Source: Armatimonadota bacterium
GTDB taxonomy: Bacteria > Armatimonadota > UBA5829 > DSUL01
Direction of reading: 5' to 3'
Assembly: GCA_039811685.1 (NCBI GenBank)
Contig: JBDHZC010000003.1
Coordinates: forward strand, 32,001 to 96,000
Length of the DNA stretch: 64,000 nucleotides
The position numbers were made by a program, and so were the translations under genes. The notes under the pieces were generated by a model. The model was not told the DNA's origin, ran no database searches, and saw only the letters and a list, made by a program, of their open reading frames with translations. Position 1 is the stretch's first letter, and each line of letters opens with the position of its first letter. Shown one piece after another: positions 1,100 through 12,406 of the stretch.

Positions 1100-1576
1100 C
1101 TGAGTCCCCTCCAGCCAGGCTCTCTTACTGGCTGCGCTTCAGGTGTCGCCGAGGCGCGGGGACAGTGAATGAGCTCATTCGTCATCGAAATCTCCTGCAA
1201 CGTCCAGTTCTCCTGGAAACATTCTGTCCGCTACGACGCGCTTTCACCACGTTGACGGCGGTGGGTCAGACTCCAGACGGGGATTCCCGCATGAAGACAG
1301 GCATCCGCGGCACATGTGCGAGCTTCATGCGACAAATCACGGGCATGAGAGCAGGCGCATCTGCAATATCTGCGCGTTTACAATCGTCTCCACTGCGGGA
1401 ATCAATACGCAACCGTTCTTCTTGTGCGCCACTCAGCGCACGGTGACCAACTCTTTGTTTCGGCCTTGGCGCCTGATGGATAGACGCAGAAATACTGGGC
1501 GTCGGAGAGTGCGGAGCGGTTGCCTATCTCATCCAAGTTGTATCATCATCCCGTACCAAATTTGAGGGGAGCTTCT

Positions 1577-2092
1577 ATGAACGTAAAATATCGCAGAGTC
1601 GTGCGCGCGTGCGCAGTTGCCGTTGGCGTCTGTCTGCCGACGCTCATAGCCGGCGTGTTAGGCTATGCCCATGAGGGGCACGAGCACACGCCGCCCCCGG
1701 CTGGGCAGACTTCCGCAAAAGCCTACAAGAACATAAAGGTTCTCAAAGACCTGCCGGCTGATCAGCTCATCCCGCTTATGAAGAGCTTTGACGCGGCTCT
1801 GGGGGTGAATTGCGAGTTCTGCCACGTTGTGACAGAGAATCACGAAGGCTTCGACCGCGACGATAAGCCCACCAAGCTTATGGCGCGAAAGATGATCGTC
1901 ATGACGCAGAATCTGAACAAGACGCAAAAGATTCTGAAGAATAAGGCGAGTTGCTACATGTGCCACCAGGGCAACAAGGAGCCGATCGTCGTTCCACCTG
2001 CCCAGAAGCCTGGCAACGAGCCTGGTCAACCCGCAGAGCAGCCTTCGGCATCCGGATCGGGCGAGGCTGGCAGTGAGTCTGTAAGCAAGTGA
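1577..2092 (+). CDS. Periplasmic diheme c-type cytochrome, photosynthetic reaction-centre cytochrome c (PufC)-like family
   Basis: Two CxxCH motifs (CEFCH, CYMCH); YKNIKVL..LM..F..ALGVNC and K..ARKMI.M segments; hydrophobic leader; start moved to ATG 1577 behind GAGGGGA. Confidence 0.8.
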   Translation: MNVKYRRVVRACAVAVGVCLPTLIAGVLGYAHEGHEHTPPPAGQTSAKAYKNIKVLKDLPADQLIPLMKSFDAALGVNCEFCHVVTENHEGFDRDDKPTKLMARKMIVMTQNLNKTQKILKNKASCYMCHQGNKEPIVVPPAQKPGNEPGQPAEQPSASGSGEAGSESVSK

Positions 2093-2143
2093 GTTTCTAA
2101 GAAAAACTTCGCTTCAGACTTCGTAAATCAAACAAAATCGCAC

Positions 2144-2176
2144 GCAAAGCCCGCTGGAGTGCCTGGCGGGCTTTGC
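2144..2176. terminator. Probable intrinsic terminator hairpin after the cytochrome gene
   Basis: GCAAAGCCCGC...GCGGGCTTTGC inverted repeat. Confidence 0.55.
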
Positions 2177-2208
2177 TGTATCAGGGGCGGAGCGTTTACA
2201 ATCCGCTT

Positions 2209-3183
2209 ATGAAAATCGCCAAAGCCGTAATCACTGCCGCCGGACGCGGCGCCCGTCTGTATCCTGCGGCGACTCCTGTTCAGAAATCCATGCTGCCTGT
2301 TGTGGATCGCGACGGCTTCACAAAGCCCGCCATCCAGCTTATTGCGGAGGAAGCAATTAACAGCGGCGCGCAGGACATCTGCATCGTTTGCGCTCCGGGT
2401 GACGAGAGCCAGTATGTAGAGCAGTTCAAATGTCTGCGGCAGAATCTCCTGAAGGTGTTTCAGGATGCGGACTGGGCACAGAAGATGGCCGCCCGGCTGG
2501 ACGATCTGCTGCAGAAGCTGCACTTCGCTATCCAACCGGAACCACTCGGGTACGGAGATGCTGTTTTTCGGGCGCGCGCTTTCACCGCTGGCGAGCCGTT
2601 TCTGCTGCTCCTGAGTGATCATCTCTATCTTTCTTACACAGATCGCTCATGCGCCGAGCAGATAACGGAGTTGGCCAGTGAGCAGCTTTGCTCTGTTGCA
2701 GGCGTGCAGGTCACGCGGGAGAGCCTGATTGCGAACTTTGGCACACTGGCTGGGCGGCGCGTTGAGAACCTGTCTGGAGTCTATGAGATCGAGCGTATCC
2801 TGGAGAAACCTTCCGTCAGCATTGCGGAGATAGAGCTTGTGACTGCGGGGTTGCGCACAGGGTATTATCTGTGCTTTTTCGGTATTCACGTACTGACGCC
2901 GGCGATATTTGAAATCCTGGAAGCTCAAGAGGGTCGGTCGGTGAGTCAGTCTGAGCTGTTGCTTACTCCCGCGCTCGATGAGTTGGCCCACCGGGAGCGT
3001 TATCTGGCGCAGGAAGTGAAGGGCGTGCGCTACGATCTTGGGCAGAAGTATGGGCTGTTGCGCGCTCAACTGGCGCTCGGTGAAGCGGGCGTTGACCACG
3101 ACGAGATCCTCCACGCAACTCTGGAGACTCTGGCGGACGTTCGGCTCGGGTTGCGCCCGGGCGATTCTGGTAGGCCCAGGTGA
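2209..3183 (+). CDS. Sugar-1-phosphate nucleotidyltransferase, GalU-like
   Basis: KAVITAAGRGARLYPA..QKSMLP, QPEPLGYGDAV, LLLSD, ILEKP and RYDLG motifs; likely start is ATG 2209 (MKIAKAV). Confidence 0.85.
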   Translation: MKIAKAVITAAGRGARLYPAATPVQKSMLPVVDRDGFTKPAIQLIAEEAINSGAQDICIVCAPGDESQYVEQFKCLRQNLLKVFQDADWAQKMAARLDDLLQKLHFAIQPEPLGYGDAVFRARAFTAGEPFLLLLSDHLYLSYTDRSCAEQITELASEQLCSVAGVQVTRESLIANFGTLAGRRVENLSGVYEIERILEKPSVSIAEIELVTAGLRTGYYLCFFGIHVLTPAIFEILEAQEGRSVSQSELLLTPALDELAHRERYLAQEVKGVRYDLGQKYGLLRAQLALGEAGVDHDEILHATLETLADVRLGLRPGDSGRPR

Positions 3184-6100
3184 ACGTCTTCATCGAGACA
3201 ATCACGGCGCAAGAGCCTCTGAAGCGGCACAGGTCTCTTGAAGAGCTCCTGAGCGGGCAGAAAACTGAAGAATTATTGCGCGCGTGCGACGAACTGGATG
3301 CGTTCCGCCGCTCAACAGGCAATCTGTACGAAAAGGCGCGCGCGTGCTGCATGCTGCACGCCATCTACCGTTTTCAGCTGCAGGATGCAGGAGATGTATC
3401 GTCAACCGGGGTCGTGCCGTACGGCGCTTTTGAAGACATGCTTGCGCGCCGGTTTGGGGAGGCTGTGTCCGGTTTCAAGGCAGCGCAGGCTGAGAATGGC
3501 CCGAACGCTGCCCTCTTCAGCGCGCTTGCGCACAGCTACCGCCAGCTTACTTTTCAGATTCTCTCGGATCAGGTGCGGCGCAGTGTGCGGGCGACTCGCG
3601 GCAACCAGTGGATGTTTCGCATCGCGCATCCCGATGATCACCCCATCCGTATTCATCCCGCTTTGCTGAAGCGCTCATCCAACTCGCCTCTTTACAATAT
3701 TCTCATCGAGACCACGCCCGTTCGCCTCGATCTGTCCCACAGCGGATGGTCCGACATCTTCTTCCTCGGGATGGACTATCCTGAAGGGGCACGGGTGTTA
3801 AACATTTCGGTGGACCTGGGAGTACACGGGCGTGATGTCAGCGCCAGCGCTCCAATATCCGTGTATTTTCGAGTGATTAGCGAGCCTGTCATCCGGCTCA
3901 CAAGCGTTGACCTGGCCTCTACCAAGGATGTGACAGATCTCAACGACCTGTTCAACTTCGGAAACGACTATCTGAGCCTTCTGAAAGCGGGTGTCATTGC
4001 GTCCGGGCTGATTCCCCCATCGTTCGAAGGGTCAGGCTACCCGCTGCGGCAGATACTGGATCGCGTTGTCGGCCCGGGTATGGGCTTTGAAGTCGTCACA
4101 AGTGTGAACGACATTCCGAAGGGCTCCCGGCTTGCTGTTTCCACCAATCTTCTTGCCGCCATTATCGCCGCCGCAATGCGCGGCTCCGGACAGACTTCTT
4201 CGCTCACGGGGTCACTGACTGAGACGCAGCGGCGGATCGTAGCCTCTCGCGCTATTCTCGGGGAATGGCTGGGCGGATCGGGAGGTGGATGGCAGGACTC
4301 GGGAGGCATCTGGCCCGCGATAAAGCTCATCCAGGGCGCACTTGCGCAGGAAGGCGATCCGGAATTTGGCGTAAGTGCGGGGCGTCTCCTTCCTGAACAT
4401 CGCATCCTGTCAGATGCAGATGTGCATCCGGAGCTTCCCGCCCGGCTCTCCGAGTCGCTGGTGCTGGTTCACGGCGGTCTCGCGCAAAACGTCGGTCCGA
4501 TTCTCGAGATGGTCACCGAGAGATATCTGCTGCGCCAGCAGCCGGAGTGGCAAGCCAGGCAGGAGATGCGCGATATCTTCAACGGTGTGGTGCAGTCGCT
4601 GAAGGATGGGGATGTAAAATCGCTGGCGATGTGGACCACGCGTAACTGGGAAGGACCTCTCAAGACCATCATTCCCTGGGTCACCAACTCCTTCACGGAG
4701 ACCCTTATAGCTCGCTCGCGAGAGAAACTCGGGGCGGATTTCTGGGGATTCCTGATGCTGGGCGGAATGTCTGGCGGAGGAATGGCACTTTTTGTCGCTC
4801 CGCAGCGAGCCGTCCAATTCAGGGATGAGGTTCTTGAAATCATGCGCAGCGCAAAGCGCGAGCTCGACTGCGCCATGCCTTTCGCTATGGAGCCAGTAGT
4901 TTACGACTTCAGGATCAATGAGCAGGGCAGCGTGGCGGACATGCTCTGCGGGCTGGACGCTCTTATGCCGGTTCGCTACTACGGCATCCATCTCTCTCTG
5001 CTGGCGCGGAGCAGCCCGGATGCCGTGCCCGGCTCCAGGCGGGTGGAGTTTGAGCACTTTGTCAGCTCACAGCCAGAGGACGCTGTGTCCTTCCAGCTTC
5101 TGAAAACTGTCGCCTCGTCACTGTTTCGCGCCTCTGAGGCTCCGCCAACCGGACGAACTCAGCAGTGGCGGGTGGAGTTGGAACGGATCAAAGCTGACAG
5201 CGGCTTTGATGACGTACAGCACGAGCAAATGCGTCAGGACCTGCGCAGCGGGCGCATCGGCCTAGCTCGCAACCGCCTGCCACTTGAGTCTGACATCGAG
5301 GATGTAAGTCCGGCAGATGTCACACTGCTGGAGGATTGCGACCGTTTCCGAAGCGCTGGAGTTGAGGCGATTCGGGAAGGAGCGGTGGCAGTTCTGTCTC
5401 TGGCTGGAGGGATTGGCAGCAGATGGACCAGCGGCGCCGGGGTCATCAAGGCGTTGAATCCGTTCGCGCAGATGGCTGGCCACCACCGCAGCTTTCTGGA
5501 AATCCACCTGGCCAAGACACGCAGGACCTCCAGAGAGCTTGGCGCAGAGCTTGCGCATCTCGTTTCCACCAGTTATCTCACGCATGCGGCGATCGCTGAG
5601 ACTCTTCATCAGGAGAACAACTTTGGTTTCACCGGGCCTCTCCTCCTGTCTCCGGGACGAGCCATCGGGCAGCGGTTGGTGCCTATGGTGCGAGACCTCA
5701 CTTTTCTGTGGGAAGACATGCCCCAGGAGACTCTTGATGAGCAAAAGCAGAAAGTGCGCGACTCTGTGAGAGGGGCATTGCTGGATTGGGCTCGAAACAA
5801 AGGCGAAGGGTCTGACTACACAGACAACCTGCCGGGGCAGTGCCTGGCGCCCGCAGGGCACTGGTACGAAGTGCCCAATATGCTGCGTAGCGGGGTACTT
5901 CTGAAACTGCTGAAAGAGCGGCCTCAGTTGCGCACAATAATACTGCACAACATCGACACACTTGGCGCGGCGGTTGATCCTGCGGCGCTCGGCTGGCACC
6001 TGGCAGGTGGTCAGGTGTTGTCGTACGAAGTTGTGCCGCGCCGGATGGAAGATCGCGGCGGCGGTCTTGCGCGCATCAACGGTCGCCTGCGGCTTCTGGA

Positions 6101-6515
6101 GGGTCTCGCGCAACCCCGTGAAGACGTTGAGCTGCGTCTGCGCTATTACAACACGATGACAACCTGGATTCAGATTGACGAGTTGCTCAGGGTGTTCGGC
6201 TTGACGCGCGAGGAGCTTGAGGATGAGTCGCAAGTCATACAGGCGATTCGCAATGTCGCTTCTCGGCTTCCCACGTATGTGACCGTAAAAGATGTCAAGT
6301 ACCGCTGGGGACACGGACAGGAAGACATCTATCCGGTCGCGCAGTTCGAGAAGCTCTGGGGAGATATGACGACTCTTTCAGATGTCAGATGCGGGTACCT
6401 GGTTGTGGACAGGCGCCGCGGCCAACAGCTCAAAGACCCTGCAGAGCTTGATGCGTGGGTGAGGGATGGTTCGCGAGACTATATCGAGAGTCTCTGCGAC
6501 TTCGACGCGCGCTGA
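3180..6515 (+). CDS. Fusion protein: GHMP-family sugar kinase (N-terminal) + UDPGP-family NDP-sugar pyrophosphorylase (C-terminal)
   Basis: PVRLDL, IPKGSRLAVSTNL, GGGWQD and LGGMSGGG GHMP motifs; LSLAGGIGSRW, PAGHW, HNIDTLGA, GGGL and QFEK UDPGP motifs; GTGA overlap with the upstream gene. Confidence 0.8.
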   Translation: MNVFIETITAQEPLKRHRSLEELLSGQKTEELLRACDELDAFRRSTGNLYEKARACCMLHAIYRFQLQDAGDVSSTGVVPYGAFEDMLARRFGEAVSGFKAAQAENGPNAALFSALAHSYRQLTFQILSDQVRRSVRATRGNQWMFRIAHPDDHPIRIHPALLKRSSNSPLYNILIETTPVRLDLSHSGWSDIFFLGMDYPEGARVLNISVDLGVHGRDVSASAPISVYFRVISEPVIRLTSVDLASTKDVTDLNDLFNFGNDYLSLLKAGVIASGLIPPSFEGSGYPLRQILDRVVGPGMGFEVVTSVNDIPKGSRLAVSTNLLAAIIAAAMRGSGQTSSLTGSLTETQRRIVASRAILGEWLGGSGGGWQDSGGIWPAIKLIQGALAQEGDPEFGVSAGRLLPEHRILSDADVHPELPARLSESLVLVHGGLAQNVGPILEMVTERYLLRQQPEWQARQEMRDIFNGVVQSLKDGDVKSLAMWTTRNWEGPLKTIIPWVTNSFTETLIARSREKLGADFWGFLMLGGMSGGGMALFVAPQRAVQFRDEVLEIMRSAKRELDCAMPFAMEPVVYDFRINEQGSVADMLCGLDALMPVRYYGIHLSLLARSSPDAVPGSRRVEFEHFVSSQPEDAVSFQLLKTVASSLFRASEAPPTGRTQQWRVELERIKADSGFDDVQHEQMRQDLRSGRIGLARNRLPLESDIEDVSPADVTLLEDCDRFRSAGVEAIREGAVAVLSLAGGIGSRWTSGAGVIKALNPFAQMAGHHRSFLEIHLAKTRRTSRELGAELAHLVSTSYLTHAAIAETLHQENNFGFTGPLLLSPGRAIGQRLVPMVRDLTFLWEDMPQETLDEQKQKVRDSVRGALLDWARNKGEGSDYTDNLPGQCLAPAGHWYEVPNMLRSGVLLKLLKERPQLRTIILHNIDTLGAAVDPAALGWHLAGGQVLSYEVVPRRMEDRGGGLARINGRLRLLEGLAQPREDVELRLRYYNTMTTWIQIDELLRVFGLTREELEDESQVIQAIRNVASRLPTYVTVKDVKYRWGHGQEDIYPVAQFEKLWGDMTTLSDVRCGYLVVDRRRGQQLKDPAELDAWVRDGSRDYIESLCDFDAR

Positions 6516-6663
6516 GGCATCGCCTACTTTTTCGCCAAGCCCGGTAAAATATCACAGGGATGCTGTTAAGATTGCCGGGGTGTCCTCCGTCTAACTGCTT
6601 TAGCGCAGTTGTTGCGCGTAAGAGGTAGCCAGTTCGTTTCACGATTGGAAAGGGTGCACTTCG

Positions 6664-7569
6664 ATGAAAATTCTCGGATTACGGAGGATGCTGACAAGCG
6701 CATCTGTCGCGCTTTTTCTGGCGTCATCCAATTTTGTCCGCGCTGACCAGCCGCCGGCTGCGGCGGCAACTATATCCGTCAGCCTTAGTGGCAGCGTTAC
6801 AGAAGCAGCCTCTGATCTTGCCGCCAAGACCGGAACGCCCGTCCTCGTAGATCCATCCGTGAGCGGATCTGTGACGGGCACTTTCAACAACTCCTCGGTG
6901 GATCAGGTGCTGGACGCCGTCTCTTCGTCCGTGAAGGCCAGGTGGGTCAAGGCTTTCATTCCGGAGAGCACTCCCAAGGCCGATGAGATCAAAGCCGCCA
7001 AAGAGCAGGTCGCGGCGCTTGAGGCCGTTAAAGAGACCAAGCCAGTGATGGTGTACGATCCTGCTTCCAAGTCGCAGATTATCCTCACAAAGTTTGCCCC
7101 GGATCCCGCGCGCGATCTGGAAGACGCCAAAGCGCTGGGGCTTCGTCCGGTCTATCTGATTTATGCGCCGCCGCCTCCACCCAGGCCTGCAGCAACGGCG
7201 ACAGCGCCCAGCGGTCAGAATGCGACTGACTACAGCAATCTTGGCAAGCAGCAGCAGGCGGAATTCCTGAAGATGACGCCCGACCAGCGTGTTAAAGCTC
7301 TGGAGCAGTCGCTTGCTGATGAAATTGCGACAGATCCAACCACTCGTTCGGAATACATGCGAGCGCGAATGGAAGCGATGAATGCTCTTCGCCAGAGCAA
7401 CTCGCCGGTGTATCAGCAGTGGCGTGATTCGCAGCGGCAGAACTGGCAGAACATGGGCGGCAACCGTGGAAACTGGGGTAACCGGCAGCGGGGTGTTGGG
7501 CCTGGTGGAGACCCCAACAACGGTAACTGGCGTGGCCGTCGAGGTGGCGGTCAGGCCCCTGCGCAGTAA
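6664..7569 (+). CDS. Secreted hypothetical protein with secretin-N/STN-like N-terminal domain and Gly/Arg/Asn-rich tail
   Basis: Signal peptide; LAAKTGTPVLVDPSVSGSVT..FNNSSVDQVLDAV resembles STN/N0 domains; low-complexity C-terminus. Confidence 0.5.
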   Translation: MKILGLRRMLTSASVALFLASSNFVRADQPPAAAATISVSLSGSVTEAASDLAAKTGTPVLVDPSVSGSVTGTFNNSSVDQVLDAVSSSVKARWVKAFIPESTPKADEIKAAKEQVAALEAVKETKPVMVYDPASKSQIILTKFAPDPARDLEDAKALGLRPVYLIYAPPPPPRPAATATAPSGQNATDYSNLGKQQQAEFLKMTPDQRVKALEQSLADEIATDPTTRSEYMRARMEAMNALRQSNSPVYQQWRDSQRQNWQNMGGNRGNWGNRQRGVGPGGDPNNGNWRGRRGGGQAPAQ

Positions 7570-7657: not shown

Positions 7658-8926
7658 TCACTCTGTAGCAGCAGGCGTCGAGGACTGCAAAGCTCCCAGC
7701 AGCGGCCTCGCCTGCTCGCGAAGTTGAGGGAGCATCTTCGCAAAGACTAAAGCGGCGACAATGCCGATGCTGCCACCCAGAGCCACTGTGTGCGGCGCGC
7801 CTATCTGCGCAGCCAGCGCTCCGGCGATGAGCGCGCCCACTGGCGCCATCCCCATAAACATCATCGAATAAAGAGCCATCACGCGCCCGCGCAGCTCATC
7901 AGGCGTCATAGTCTGAACGAGGGTGTTGCAGGAGGCCATCTGGATCATCATCGAAAAGCCCGCCGGTACCAGGCACGCCGCGGACAGCCAGAAATGCCGG
8001 GACAGCGCGAATGCTATCATTGCGATCCCGAACCCCGCGCACGCGCGCGCTATCCAGCGACCCAATCCCTTCACGCTCTGGCGATGAGCCAGTACGATTG
8101 CGCCTATAAAGGCCCCCACGCCTGAGGAAGCCATCAGAATCCCCAGCCCGCGGGCGCCTCCGTGGAGAATAGTCTCGGCAAAGATCGGCATCAGTGTGAC
8201 GTATGGCATCGCAACCATACTGATCACGCCAAGAAGCGCCAGAAGAGTAAGAATTGGCCGCGTGCTGAGTACGTATCTAAAGCCTTCTGTTACGTGAGTC
8301 AGCCCGGACTTTGTACGGGTAGCCGGTGAGGCATCCAAACGGATGAGAACCAGTCCCGTGATTACTGCCGTGTAGCTAACACCGTTAATAAAAAAGCACC
8401 AGCCCTCACCCACAGCCGCAACGAGAATTCCCGCGATAGCCGGACCGACAATGCGGGCGCCGTTGAACAGGGAAGAGTTGAGCGCAATTGCGTTGATCAG
8501 GTCGTCGCGCCCTACCATGTCCACCACAAAGCTCTGACGGGTAGGGATGTCTATCGCGTTTGTGATTCCCAGGAGACCTGCGAGTACGAAGAGATGCCAT
8601 GGCTGCACGCGGCCGCTCAGAGTGAGAGCTGCCAGTGTAAGCGCCAGTACCATCATGGCGCTTTGTGTGCAGATCAGAACGTGGCGGCGGTTCAGGCGGT
8701 CCGAGAGCGAACCGCCGATCGGTCCCAGAAGAAAAACAGGGATCTGAGAACAAAACTGCATACCGCCCAGCAGCACCGCTGAGCCAGTCAGCCTGTACAC
8801 CAGCCATGACTCTCCCACAGACTGCATCCACGTGCCAATAAGTGAAATGAACTGCCCGGCCATAAACAGGCGATAGTTGCGGTGGCGCATGGCCCGCAGA
8901 GAAGCTGGTAGCTGGAAGTTAGTCAT
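7658..8926 (-). CDS. MFS transporter (MFS_3/DUF894 type)
   Basis: HRNYRLF..GQFISLIGTWMQ, GSLSDRLNRR and PDELRGRVM motifs; about 12 hydrophobic segments. Confidence 0.9.
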   Translation of the reverse strand: MTNFQLPASLRAMRHRNYRLFMAGQFISLIGTWMQSVGESWLVYRLTGSAVLLGGMQFCSQIPVFLLGPIGGSLSDRLNRRHVLICTQSAMMVLALTLAALTLSGRVQPWHLFVLAGLLGITNAIDIPTRQSFVVDMVGRDDLINAIALNSSLFNGARIVGPAIAGILVAAVGEGWCFFINGVSYTAVITGLVLIRLDASPATRTKSGLTHVTEGFRYVLSTRPILTLLALLGVISMVAMPYVTLMPIFAETILHGGARGLGILMASSGVGAFIGAIVLAHRQSVKGLGRWIARACAGFGIAMIAFALSRHFWLSAACLVPAGFSMMIQMASCNTLVQTMTPDELRGRVMALYSMMFMGMAPVGALIAGALAAQIGAPHTVALGGSIGIVAALVFAKMLPQLREQARPLLGALQSSTPAATE

Positions 8927-10944: not shown

Positions 10945-11023
10945 GCCGTGTGCCTTGCGGCATCCAGCACAATCTCTGCAGTGCCCCTGCCGCCACCGGC
11001 CGGCAGTAGGATTCCTGGTTCAT

Positions 11024-12406
11024 TTGAAAATCGCTGATCTGTTGTCTGCTGAGGGAGTCCGTCTCTATCCGGCCTCTATCAAAGACGTGTGCGGCGGCCG
11101 TGTATTCGTTGCATCGAAAGACGGCCAGAAGTATGTCGGCTCAGAAGGTGTAGAACTGCCAGAAAGGCCGGACACCGTCATTGCCACAACTGCGTTACGC
11201 AGGCTCACCTGGCCTGTCTATGAAGCCCTGCGCAGCCTGACAGACCTGCGCCCGTCAATCTGTGATAGTTCTGCGTCTTTCGGCACGGGCGACCGCCTCG
11301 GAATGGTCACCGCTGCCCATCTGCAAGCTGTCAGCCACTCTCCTCTTTTCCCCGTGGTGGCTCAGCAGTCCCCGCGCGAGCTCAAACTAACCCGCCGCAG
11401 CTTTCAGTCCGTTCTTTGCGACGCTGCGCTCGGCGTTCTGGAAAGCGGCTACAGCGGGAGATGGGGGGCTGACGCCGATCACATCAAAGCTGAAAGTGAC
11501 CTTATGGATGCCGTACGCGCGGGATACACGATGTATACGCTGGATCTCAGCGACTGGACTCCGAGCGCCTTTGCGTCAGACAGCGCTCTCTCCAGCCTCA
11601 GCCGCCAGATCATCACCGAATGGGCGGGCAAAAGCATCCGCGAAGGCGCAGTCTGCGCGCGTTTTACAGAGGAGGACCTGACAGAGTCCGCCGCCGTCTA
11701 TGAAAAAGCTCTGCAGAGCGCGGTCAACTACAACCGCATCATCCGGAGCTCCCTCAGCGCCTTCGATCTGGAGATCTCCATTGACGAAGGCGATCGCTTG
11801 ACCACCCCCGCTGACCATCTCTATGTCGCGCAGTTCCTCAGGCGCTCCGGTGTCCGCATTTTCAGCATCGCCCCGCGCTTTCCAGGGGAGTTCCAGAAGG
11901 GGATTGACTACGTCGGAGACCTGAGCGAACTGAAGCGCTCCTTTGACACCCATGCCGCCCTGGCGCGAGCCACCGGAGACCACCGTCTGTCTCTGCACTC
12001 GGGAAGCGACAAGTTCAGTGTGTACGGCATGTTCGCGGAGGCGACGCGCGGGCGCTATCACGTCAAGACCTCCGGGACAAGCTGGCTGGAAGCTGTGGGG
12101 GCGGTTGCTCTGGCGGACAGAGCGCTCTTCAGCGACCTCTACCGTGCCTCGTTGGATGCGCTGAACGCCAACAAGAAGCTCTACCACATCTTCATCACAG
12201 TGGATGACTTCCCGTCAGAAGTTCCGCAGGACATCGCCGCCTTCTTCCGGGAAAACAACACGCGGCAGCTCTTTCACGTGTCTTACGGAACGCTGCTGGA
12301 TGCCTTTGGAGAGCGCATCCGCCGGGCGCTTGAGTCCACAGAAGACCTCCACTACAGGTCCGTCTCGGAGCATATTCTCAAGCACGTAACGGAACTCACA
12401 GCCTGA
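11024..12406 (+). CDS. uxaE: Tagaturonate/fructuronate epimerase
   Basis: SFGTGDRLG, AQQSPRE, GADADHIK, EISIDE, GEFQKGIDY, LSLHSGSDKFS and HVKTSGTSWLEA motifs; start uncertain (TTG 11024; ORF opens at 10955). Confidence 0.9.
   Translation: MKIADLLSAEGVRLYPASIKDVCGGRVFVASKDGQKYVGSEGVELPERPDTVIATTALRRLTWPVYEALRSLTDLRPSICDSSASFGTGDRLGMVTAAHLQAVSHSPLFPVVAQQSPRELKLTRRSFQSVLCDAALGVLESGYSGRWGADADHIKAESDLMDAVRAGYTMYTLDLSDWTPSAFASDSALSSLSRQIITEWAGKSIREGAVCARFTEEDLTESAAVYEKALQSAVNYNRIIRSSLSAFDLEISIDEGDRLTTPADHLYVAQFLRRSGVRIFSIAPRFPGEFQKGIDYVGDLSELKRSFDTHAALARATGDHRLSLHSGSDKFSVYGMFAEATRGRYHVKTSGTSWLEAVGAVALADRALFSDLYRASLDALNANKKLYHIFITVDDFPSEVPQDIAAFFRENNTRQLFHVSYGTLLDAFGERIRRALESTEDLHYRSVSEHILKHVTELTA

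Follow-up and report, generated by a model that had tools for sequence, protein, structure and literature searches.

The window analysed here is a stretch of 64,000 nucleotides from an Armatimonadota bacterium (GenBank assembly GCA_039811685.1, contig JBDHZC010000003.1, positions 32,001 to 96,000 of the forward strand). It carries a module of two overlapping genes, the first encoding a GalU-like nucleotidyltransferase (hereafter the partner) and the second a large protein (hereafter the big protein) in which a helical domain is followed by a kinase of the GHMP family and a nucleotidyltransferase of the UDPGP family. Features of the module and its surroundings are summarized in Table 1. The GTG start of the big gene is supported by the alignment of its product with homologues, which can be followed from residue 1. 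The folds of the big protein, the conservation of its residues, the pairing of the two genes and their co-divergence are directly supported by the analyses below, and the pair is a widespread, very conserved and unstudied bacterial unit. With moderate confidence, we read the big protein as a kinase and a UDP-sugar pyrophosphorylase acting on one and the same sugar, and the GalU-like protein as an accessory subunit that was gained later.

Table 1. Coordinates of the two-gene module, its parts and the neighbouring genes in the window (ORF, open reading frame; MFS, major facilitator superfamily; UGPase, UDP-glucose pyrophosphorylase)
Feature	Position	Strand	Remarks
GalU-like partner gene	2209..3183	+	ATG at 2209, TGA at 3181-3183 (codon 325); 324 residues, long type
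Big gene	3180..6515	+	GTG start at 3180; product of 1111 residues
GTGA start/stop overlap of the partner and big genes	3180..3183	+	Direct sequence reading
N-terminal helical domain, residues 1-170	3180..3689	+	AlphaFold2 model
Fucokinase-type GHMP kinase domain, residues 171-594	3690..4961	+	Structure and profile matches
Remodelled phosphate loop, motif II PKGSRLAVST, residues 313-322	4116..4145	+	Alignment to FKP residues 711-720
Helical linker, residues 595-651	4962..5132	+	Least conserved stretch of the big protein
UGPase-type UDPGP domain, residues 652-1111	5133..6512	+	PF01704 and structure
c-type cytochrome gene	1520-2092		Upstream of the module
301-residue ORF	6664-7569	+	Just 3' of the module; no Pfam family
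MFS gene	7658-8926	opposite to the module	Separates the module from the heparinase-like and UxaE genes
Heparinase II/III-like lyase, 672 residues	8926-10944	+	PF07940 and DUF4962
Tagaturonate epimerase UxaE	10955-12406	+	PF16257, E 2e-127; directly after the lyase

Folds and active sites of the big protein

A preliminary description of this locus, made from the sequence alone, had read the big protein as a helical N-terminal region, a GHMP kinase with an altered motif II and then a UDPGP-family transferase. The motifs that it quoted, like the GTGA overlap, are all present (NDIPKGSRLAVST at residues 310-322, GGGWQD at 368-373, LAGGIGSRW at 741-749, PAGH at 891-894 and HNIDTLGA at 923-930), and the architecture is borne out by profile matches and by the folds of a structural model. 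Residues 174-548 match the kinase half of FKP of Bacteroides fragilis (NCBIfam PRK13412, E 8e-21; Protein Data Bank (PDB) entry 9iip, E 1.9e-10). The PRK13412 match is confined to profile positions 609-945 and scores 73.4 bits against a cut-off of 721, so that by the whole-protein criterion the big protein is not an FKP. Residues 888-1014 match the Pfam family UDPGP (PF01704) with 38.2 bits, above the gathering cut-off of 22.

An AlphaFold2 model of the whole big protein was built on 50 homologues (pLDDT 84.9, pTM 0.84) and matched to solved structures with Foldseek and VIA-align. The FKP kinase 9iip aligns with model residues 143-589 (Z 32.4, root mean square deviation 2.5 Å, 354 residues aligned); the heptose-7-phosphate kinase WcbL (4usk) gives Z 31.2 and mevalonate kinase Z 27. 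Model residues 664-1108 are matched by the UGPases 2i5k, 7ppr and 1z90 at Z 31.5-31.9, covering residues 14-381 of the Arabidopsis enzyme (AtUGPase), and by UDP-GlcNAc pyrophosphorylases at about Z 29. In the model both folds, GHMP kinase and UGPase-type UDPGP, are confirmed far beyond chance. The N-terminal domain (residues 1-170) is modelled as all-helical. When full-length FKP is used, model residues 5-589 align to 494-949 of 9iit and model residues 3-590 to 484-949 of 5yys; 447 residues are then aligned, against 354 for the kinase part alone, and the N-terminal helical domain therefore overlays the interdomain linker of FKP. No part of the big protein aligns structurally to FKP residues 1-483. 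In outline, as modelled, the big protein is an FKP minus its N-terminal pyrophosphorylase, plus a C-terminal UGPase-type domain. Its mean column identity is 63% over the 50 homologues, which come from many phyla, and drops in the linker that joins the two catalytic domains, where homologues share a mean identity of 0.26 with the window protein over residues 601-650; pLDDT falls below 50 at residues 648-656, just past the end of this stretch.

Excerpts from the FKP structure paper (PMC11982464) give R592, W599, D601, T602, G759, Q761 and D762 as contacts of fucose-1-phosphate, D762 as the catalytic base and E751 as essential; phosphate is bound by the loop 712-720, in which S719 binds the metal. 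The residues were mapped through an HMMER alignment to 9iit, whose numbering is that of FKP plus 20. R592, W599, D601, T602, G759, Q761, D762 and E751 correspond to R182, W190, D192, I193, G370, Q372, D373 and E362 of the big protein. Seven of the eight are identical (T602 is replaced by Ile193), all positions are invariant in 50 sequences, and the metal-binding S719 is kept as S321. The kinase pocket looks fucose-like and is predicted to yield a beta-L-sugar-1-phosphate. The phosphate loop, PAGSGLGTSS in FKP (711-720), has become PKGSRLAVST through the changes A712K, G715R, G717A, T718V and S720T. As IPKGSR(L/F)AVST occurs in 63 of 63 full-length sequences of the core family, the altered loop is, judged from sequence, a fixed remodelling rather than decay. 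The Pfam scan finds no match in the big protein to PF00288, which describes the canonical motif II, and a genome search with this model recovers four other GHMP kinases and misses the big protein. Two loop residues, K314 and R317, are together with H187 basic residues that the core family has added near the kinase active site. The switch from Gly to Arg in the phosphate loop may mark a change of substrate, and its fixation is an enzymology question of its own.

With a family profile of the C-terminal domain, UGPases come first among the PDB matches (8c0b, E 6e-15; AtUGPase, E 5e-13). Among the AtUGPase ligand residues listed in the portion of PMC5832301 used here, G191, H192, N220, K256, G258, E271 and N293 fall in the confident part of the HMMER alignment and correspond to G893, H894, N924, R959, G961, E974 and N991. 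All seven are kept, six as identical residues and one as a Lys to Arg change, and they are invariant or nearly so across homologues. L85, G87, K99 and Q162 can be placed by eye only. The pocket looks similar to that of enzymes using alpha-D-hexose-1-phosphates. Given by their first and last aligned residues, the UGPase alignments end at residue 381 of 469 in AtUGPase and at residue 1108 of the model. The domain is the only PF01704 match in the genome of the window, which is 97% complete.

The partner, gene pairing and distribution

At least 8000 protein clusters at 90% identity match the big protein (all 8000 scored candidates matched); the best 120 homologues, from many phyla, are 1083-1128 residues long and 61-77% identical to it. 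The family is found in more than ten phyla, with 52-77% identity across phyla, and databases name the protein UTP--glucose-1-phosphate uridylyltransferase, or hypothetical. A search of the ESM Atlas returned nothing beyond the family's own clusters. From at least 758 confirmed stretches in species-representative genomes, 79 genome loci were kept for neighbourhood analysis. The link between the two genes that the preliminary description had supposed proves almost absolute: a GalU-like gene lies directly upstream on the same strand in 78 of these 79 loci, and the exception has only 132 bases upstream. In metagenomes, where 76 of 79 loci encode the phosphate loop (P-loop) with Arg, the partner is present in 65 of the 72 loci that are testable upstream. 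Clustering of all flanking ORFs of the 79 genome loci yields no third gene common to more than 7 loci, antisense shadow ORFs aside. The two genes form a fixed unit, and probably a functional one.

The partner is a member of PF00483 (E 1e-15). It scores 130.8 bits against the GalU model TIGR01099, below the equivalog cut-off of 326.8; true GalU proteins of related genomes reach 368-382 bits. Its best solved relatives are YngB (E 2.7e-30) and the GalU of Helicobacter pylori (E 1.3e-28), with which it is colinear save for two family-specific insertions. The GalU active-site set of KpUGP, as listed in excerpts of PMC11796359, comprises A16, G17, R21, K31, E32, Q109, G114, D137, G179, E201 and K202. 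The equivalents in the window's partner are A11, G12, R16, K26, S27, Q109, G114, D137, G178, E199 and K200, so that 10 of 11 are identical, the catalytic Arg included; E32 is replaced by Ser27 and, in addition, T20 by Ala15. An alignment of 33 partners reveals two forms. The window's partner has the long form, which is colinear with GalU. Two pieces are missing from the short form (29 of 54 typed partners): the 'VQKxMLP' segment that holds the equivalents of KpUGP K31 and E32, and a helical stretch some 24 residues long. The Gly-rich loop of the short form is variable (e.g., AGPQQQH and AAPNQN), and some short partners have no catalytic Arg (AGPQQQH).

A maximum-likelihood tree of the big protein resolves two clades with 100% support in the Shimodaira-Hasegawa-like approximate likelihood ratio test (SH-aLRT), and these match the long (23) and short (24) partners. 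The comparison covers 47 of the 63 tree rows, 16 having been dropped for want of a full partner ORF. A single change on the tree accounts for the form of the partner, a result that none of 500 label shuffles equalled: the two proteins co-diverge. Planctomycetota occur in both clades, with other phyla interleaved, a pattern suggestive of transfer of the whole unit. When the partner was modelled as a complex with residues 1-660 of the big protein, the prediction scored 0.00, which neither supports nor counts against binding. Since sister clades have no partner and half of the modules have lost its phosphate-binding segment, the partner looks like an add-on of one clade and is unlikely to carry the main pyrophosphorylase step. 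The preliminary description had left unexplained why two unrelated nucleotidyltransferases share one operon; these findings answer that in part.

The distribution of the module is patchy. In one order it is found in 12 of 151 genomes, and among these 12, G146 has a copy interrupted by stop codons, G114 a copy split in two and G119 a copy truncated at a contig end. The interrupted copy (C2:6882877-6886207) has several stop codons in the N-terminal half of the big gene and is probably a pseudogene. Module copies are also labelled as Williamsia (Actinomycetota) and as 'Bifidobacteriaceae' metagenome-assembled genomes (MAGs) (loci L023, L001 and L075). In the tree, L023 nests in a Spirosomataceae clade and L075 in a Chloroflexota-rich clade; L001 is a partial copy and was left out. 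These may be mis-binned contigs or recent transfers.

Wider family and surroundings of the module

An exhaustive HMMER search recovers 2665 clusters at 50% identity with E <= 1e-3, 516 of them with E <= 1e-30. An intermediate clade, 40-51% identical to the big protein and made up of six metagenome loci and MAGs of the 'PVC group', combines the Arg loop with an HSGWSD motif and lacks the partner; in three of its genomes no partner-like gene is found at E <= 1e-8. One Arg-variant locus without a partner (L106) has an aldose 1-epimerase gene directly upstream. A more distant subfamily, about 30-35% identical, shares the architecture and carries the canonical loop P(K/R)GSGLAVS, and its context is of another kind. 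Its Bacillota-type loci have a GmhA-like SIS gene directly upstream (6 of 6), preceded by a HAD hydrolase of the beta-PGM family (4 of the 5 loci with room), and a cellulose-synthase-like GT2 gene downstream (4 of the 4 with room); a second genome scan, with P0275 as query, added no further loci of this type. In an Omnitrophota relative, genes for a ROK kinase and a PPDK-like protein follow downstream. Elsewhere such functions are part of the polypeptide: P0137 (2318 residues) unites ROK, the core, UDPGP and an IMPase-family (inositol-monophosphatase) domain in a single ORF, and in P0150 and P0273 (2939 and 3096 residues) and in L105 (L105:3-13061, more than 4353 residues with open ends) the core is fused to ROK. 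No GalU-like part was found in the giant fusions (hhalign probability at most 0.2%). By analogy, the context of the Gly-loop subfamily fits a bisphosphate route like that of NDP-heptose synthesis, and the superfamily as a whole argues for anionic or phosphorylated sugars as ancestral substrates. The SIS, HAD and ROK context belongs to the Gly-loop branch and was not seen around the Arg-loop family of the window.

Single proteins with other arrangements were also encountered. P0221 from Candidatus Kaelpia imicola (Omnitrophota; 1246 residues) has the reverse order, with UDPGP at about 118-481 and the kinase at about 563-1223; this is the order of FKP, but its pyrophosphorylase is of the UDPGP type. 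P0154 (1292 residues) carries the Arg loop IPKGSRLAVSS; its annotation places it on a 667-kb contig of the oxymonad Blattamonas nauphoetae, and it may represent a transfer from a bacterium to a eukaryote. In a Pseudobacteroides MAG, a 484-residue form consists of the helical and GHMP parts with no UDPGP domain (L090:46-1500), and its gene is followed by those of a CBM3 protein, an FGGY kinase and a ROK regulator.

Within the window, an inverted repeat (aaagcccgc ... gcgggcttt, 2146-2174) lies between the c-type cytochrome gene and the start of the module and could be the terminator of the upstream transcript; it is absent from the list of the terminator scan because no T-run follows the repeat. 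The promoter and terminator scan of positions 1900-6900 returned nothing relevant to the two-gene unit. The sole match of the 301-residue ORF is a sub-threshold one to TIGR04260, a model for GrrA/OscA1 cyclophane precursors of ribosomally synthesised and post-translationally modified peptides (E 6e-6, 26.8 bits against a cut-off of 31), and this ORF has no homologue in the 79 related loci. The heparinase-like lyase and UxaE plausibly form a uronate-polysaccharide utilisation pair on their own, unrelated to the module. Outside the window, the same genome carries two overlapping genes on contig C2 (C2:488361-490429; locus L082:1300-3365), of which the first encodes a 237-residue NTP-transferase (best NCBIfam match Arch_glmU/AglF-like, below its cut-off) and the second a 452-residue galactokinase (TIGR00131, 272.7 bits, above the cut-off of 226.65), so that a conventional salvage pair is also present in the genome of the window.

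Proposed activity and comparison with known systems

With the catalytic and ligand residues of both active sites retained, a route from sugar through sugar-1-phosphate to UDP-sugar on one polypeptide is the most economical reading, and the proposal of the preliminary description, worded there for NDP-sugars in general, is supported to that extent. The GHMP domain would phosphorylate the anomeric hydroxyl of the sugar, with Asp373 as base and with the help of Arg182, Glu362 and the remodelled loop (Lys314, Arg317). The sugar-1-phosphate would then pass to the UGPase-type domain, which would join it to UMP from UTP to give the UDP-sugar. The N-terminal helices would correspond to the linker between the pyrophosphorylase and kinase of FKP, the partner being encoded at the position of the FKP pyrophosphorylase. 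The partner, presumably in association with the big protein, would be an accessory subunit acquired by one clade, possibly a pseudo-enzyme like GalF or GMPPA that senses a ligand or serves as a scaffold, and a long-form partner such as that of the window could be a second, weak nucleotidyltransferase.

Several observations weigh against this reading. The replacement of FKP G715 by Arg and of G717 by Ala departs from every canonical GHMP kinase, so that ATP-dependent kinase activity is not certain. It is not self-evident how one sugar would suit both a fucose-like kinase pocket and a UDPGP pocket that resembles those for alpha-D-hexose-1-phosphates. As the candidate for the uridine-binding Gln of UGPases (Q162), placed by eye, varies between Gln and Leu, we infer the choice of UTP as nucleotide substrate from the family. 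Fusion does not imply channelling, since there is no tunnel between the two sites of FKP according to excerpts of its structure paper (PMC11982464). Finally, the window's long-type partner may be a real enzyme rather than a pseudo-enzyme, its active-site residues being so largely kept.

The kinase might instead act on a hexose-6-phosphate or heptose-7-phosphate to give a 1,6- or 1,7-bisphosphate, which an unlinked phosphatase would trim before the UDPGP domain activates the sugar-1-phosphate. WcbL is structurally as close to the kinase as FKP is, the basic K314, R317 and H187 lie near the active site, and the GmhA-like SIS, HAD and GT2 genes of the Bacillota-type operons (about 30% identity), the ROK kinase of the Omnitrophota relative and the ROK and IMPase fusions all point this way. 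All of that context, however, comes from the canonical Gly-loop subfamily and not from the Arg-variant family of the window, in which no isomerase, phosphatase or ROK gene is conserved at the 79 genome loci or found beside the 76 Arg-variant metagenome loci, and the aldose 1-epimerase of the Arg-variant locus L106 points to a free sugar. K314 and R317 belong to the ATP-phosphate loop and are not demonstrably close to C6 of the sugar. The genome of the window has its own GmhA and a heptose kinase of the RfaE-domain-I type, and co-occurrence with GmhA is uninformative, because GmhA is present in 131 of the 151 genomes of the order, module or not, and in all 12 with the module. We consider the bisphosphate route unlikely for the window protein. 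A broader proposal, which we also consider unlikely, makes the fusion superfamily an unrecognised, mutase-independent route to UDP-sugars. Its Gly-loop branch would proceed from a ketose-phosphate or hexose-phosphate through a 1,x-bisphosphate and a sugar-1-phosphate to a UDP-sugar (possibly UDP-heptose) for a processive GT2, and its Arg-loop branch would serve a new substrate class with a degenerate GalU as allosteric UDP-sugar sensor. The substrate of the Arg-loop branch could then be a free 6-deoxy or L-configured sugar, or one with a fixed anionic group such as sulfonate or carboxylate, and the UDP-sugar formed would be one new to bacteria.

Three further readings are weaker than that of a kinase and pyrophosphorylase acting on one sugar. 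The module could be the cell's source of UDP-glucose, as the database name suggests; the UDPGP domain, perhaps together with the GalU-like protein, would form it from glucose-1-phosphate, and the GHMP domain would be a non-catalytic or regulatory sugar sensor. Such a role would agree with the non-canonical P-loop, with the retention of all mapped UGPase ligand residues, the glucose-holding ones included, and with the lack of any TIGR01099 match above the cut-off in the genome of the window (the partner is the best) and in 4 of the 5 named module genomes. Yet the catalytic Asp, Arg and Glu of the kinase and its sugar contacts are invariant, which argues for catalysis; most of the 151 genomes of the order lack both the module and GalU, so that neither is a general source of UDP-glucose; and the patchy distribution, with phyla mixed within clades, fits an accessory and transferable function. 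We therefore give this reading little credence. That the module replaces GalU is rejected by the same 151 genomes, of which 12 carry the module and 15 canonical GalU; GalU is present in 7 of the 12 genomes with the module and in 8 of the 139 without, a positive association. It is equally doubtful that the GalU-like protein is the true pyrophosphorylase for the kinase product and the UDPGP domain performs a different, coupled reaction. The helices that overlay the FKP linker, the location of the partner gene at the place of the FKP N-domain, the translational coupling and the retention of R16, K26, Q109, G114, D137, G178, E199 and K200 speak for it; the 29 of 54 partners without the K31/E32 segment, some also without the catalytic Arg, the sister clades without any partner and the lower conservation of the partner (mean column identity 46% against 63% for the big protein) speak against it. 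Salvage of glucuronate or galacturonate to UDP-uronates, at which the preliminary description had hinted because the heparinase-like gene and UxaE lie within 6 kb, is the least probable. The additional basic residues of the kinase would be compatible with an anionic sugar, and plants and zebrafish are described, in excerpts of PMC3938481, as salvaging glucuronate with a GHMP kinase and a pyrophosphorylase. The proximity nevertheless appears to be local chance: the lyase, UxaE and the four other neighbours in the window have no homologue in any of the 79 related loci, no third gene is conserved there, and the opposite-strand MFS gene intervenes. In sequence comparisons, moreover, fucokinase is the nearest relative of the kinase, and no match to a glucuronokinase family was obtained.

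Literature searches on GHMP/fucokinase-pyrophosphorylase fusions and on UDP-heptose found no study describing this family, and a 2025 paper on FKP phylogeny (PMC12732313) contains no mention of UDP, uridylyl or UDPGP, of domain order, of Planctomycetes or of standalone forms. If a kinase and UDP-sugar pyrophosphorylase are indeed combined in the big protein, the module would be a hidden supply route for nucleotide sugars in polysaccharide-degrading soil and water bacteria and a ready-made one-protein catalyst for the chemoenzymatic synthesis of UDP-sugars, and it would be a new instance in which a pseudo-nucleotidyltransferase accompanies an enzyme whose fold differs from its own.

Elements of the module resemble several known systems. 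The C-terminal domain shares with eukaryote-type UGPases (Arabidopsis, 2icy; yeast Ugp1p, 2i5k) the fold, the motifs GH, NxDxLG, (K/R)GG, LLE and YN..W and the conserved mapped ligand residues of UDP-glucose, but it is fused behind a kinase, has GHWY in place of GHGD, and its match covers residues 14-381 of the 469-residue plant enzyme, so that the aligned range, judged from its first and last residues, does not extend over the C-terminal beta-helix part for oligomerisation. The NDP- or GDP-heptose route consists of the isomerase GmhA, the GHMP kinase HddA or WcbL, the phosphatase GmhB and the nucleotidyltransferase HddC. The structural closeness of WcbL (Z 31.2) and the GmhA-like and HAD genes beside the distant Gly-loop subfamily recall this pathway; the Arg-loop family differs from it in having no linked isomerase or phosphatase and in its UDPGP-type nucleotidyltransferase, and the NCBIfam model of HddA has no match to the big protein at E <= 0.01.

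The closest counterpart in design is FKP (9iip, 9iit and 5yys), which likewise combines a kinase and a sugar-1-phosphate nucleotidylyltransferase in one polypeptide and shares the kinase fold, the helices before the kinase and seven of the eight fucose-contact and catalytic residues. According to the abstract of PMC11982464, the pyrophosphorylase of FKP forms its N-terminal and the kinase its C-terminal domain, and the opposite order noted in the preliminary description therefore stands. The FKP pyrophosphorylase is of the NTP-transferase plus beta-helix type and its product is a GDP-sugar, whereas the nucleotidyltransferase of the big protein lies at the C-terminus and belongs to the unrelated UDPGP/UGPase type. 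FKP has the P-loop PAGSGLGTS, the big protein PKGSRLAVS, and the GalU-like protein is encoded by a separate gene. Since the N-terminal helical domain matches the FKP linker, the two genes follow the layout of FKP, with the partner gene at the place of the FKP pyrophosphorylase. Zebrafish GKUP, and the glucuronokinase and UDP-sugar pyrophosphorylase of plants, are likewise salvage systems in which a GHMP anomeric kinase is coupled to an enzyme that forms a UDP-sugar. In GKUP a short nucleotidyltransferase of bacterial type occupies the N-terminus and the kinase the C-terminus (excerpts of PMC3938481); in plants the two enzymes are separate proteins, and there is no evidence for uronates in the module. 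For the short-type partners, with a damaged NTP site and the rest of the pocket kept, the fitting parallels are GalF, the inactive enterobacterial paralogue of GalU, and GMPPA. GalF has lost the catalytic Arg according to excerpts of PMC11796359, whereas the window's long-type partner keeps the equivalent residue; GMPPA is described in parts of PMC11228364 as a non-catalytic paralogue that regulates GMPPB. Both of them pair with an active paralogue of their own fold, whereas the partner of the big protein pairs with the unrelated UDPGP fold.

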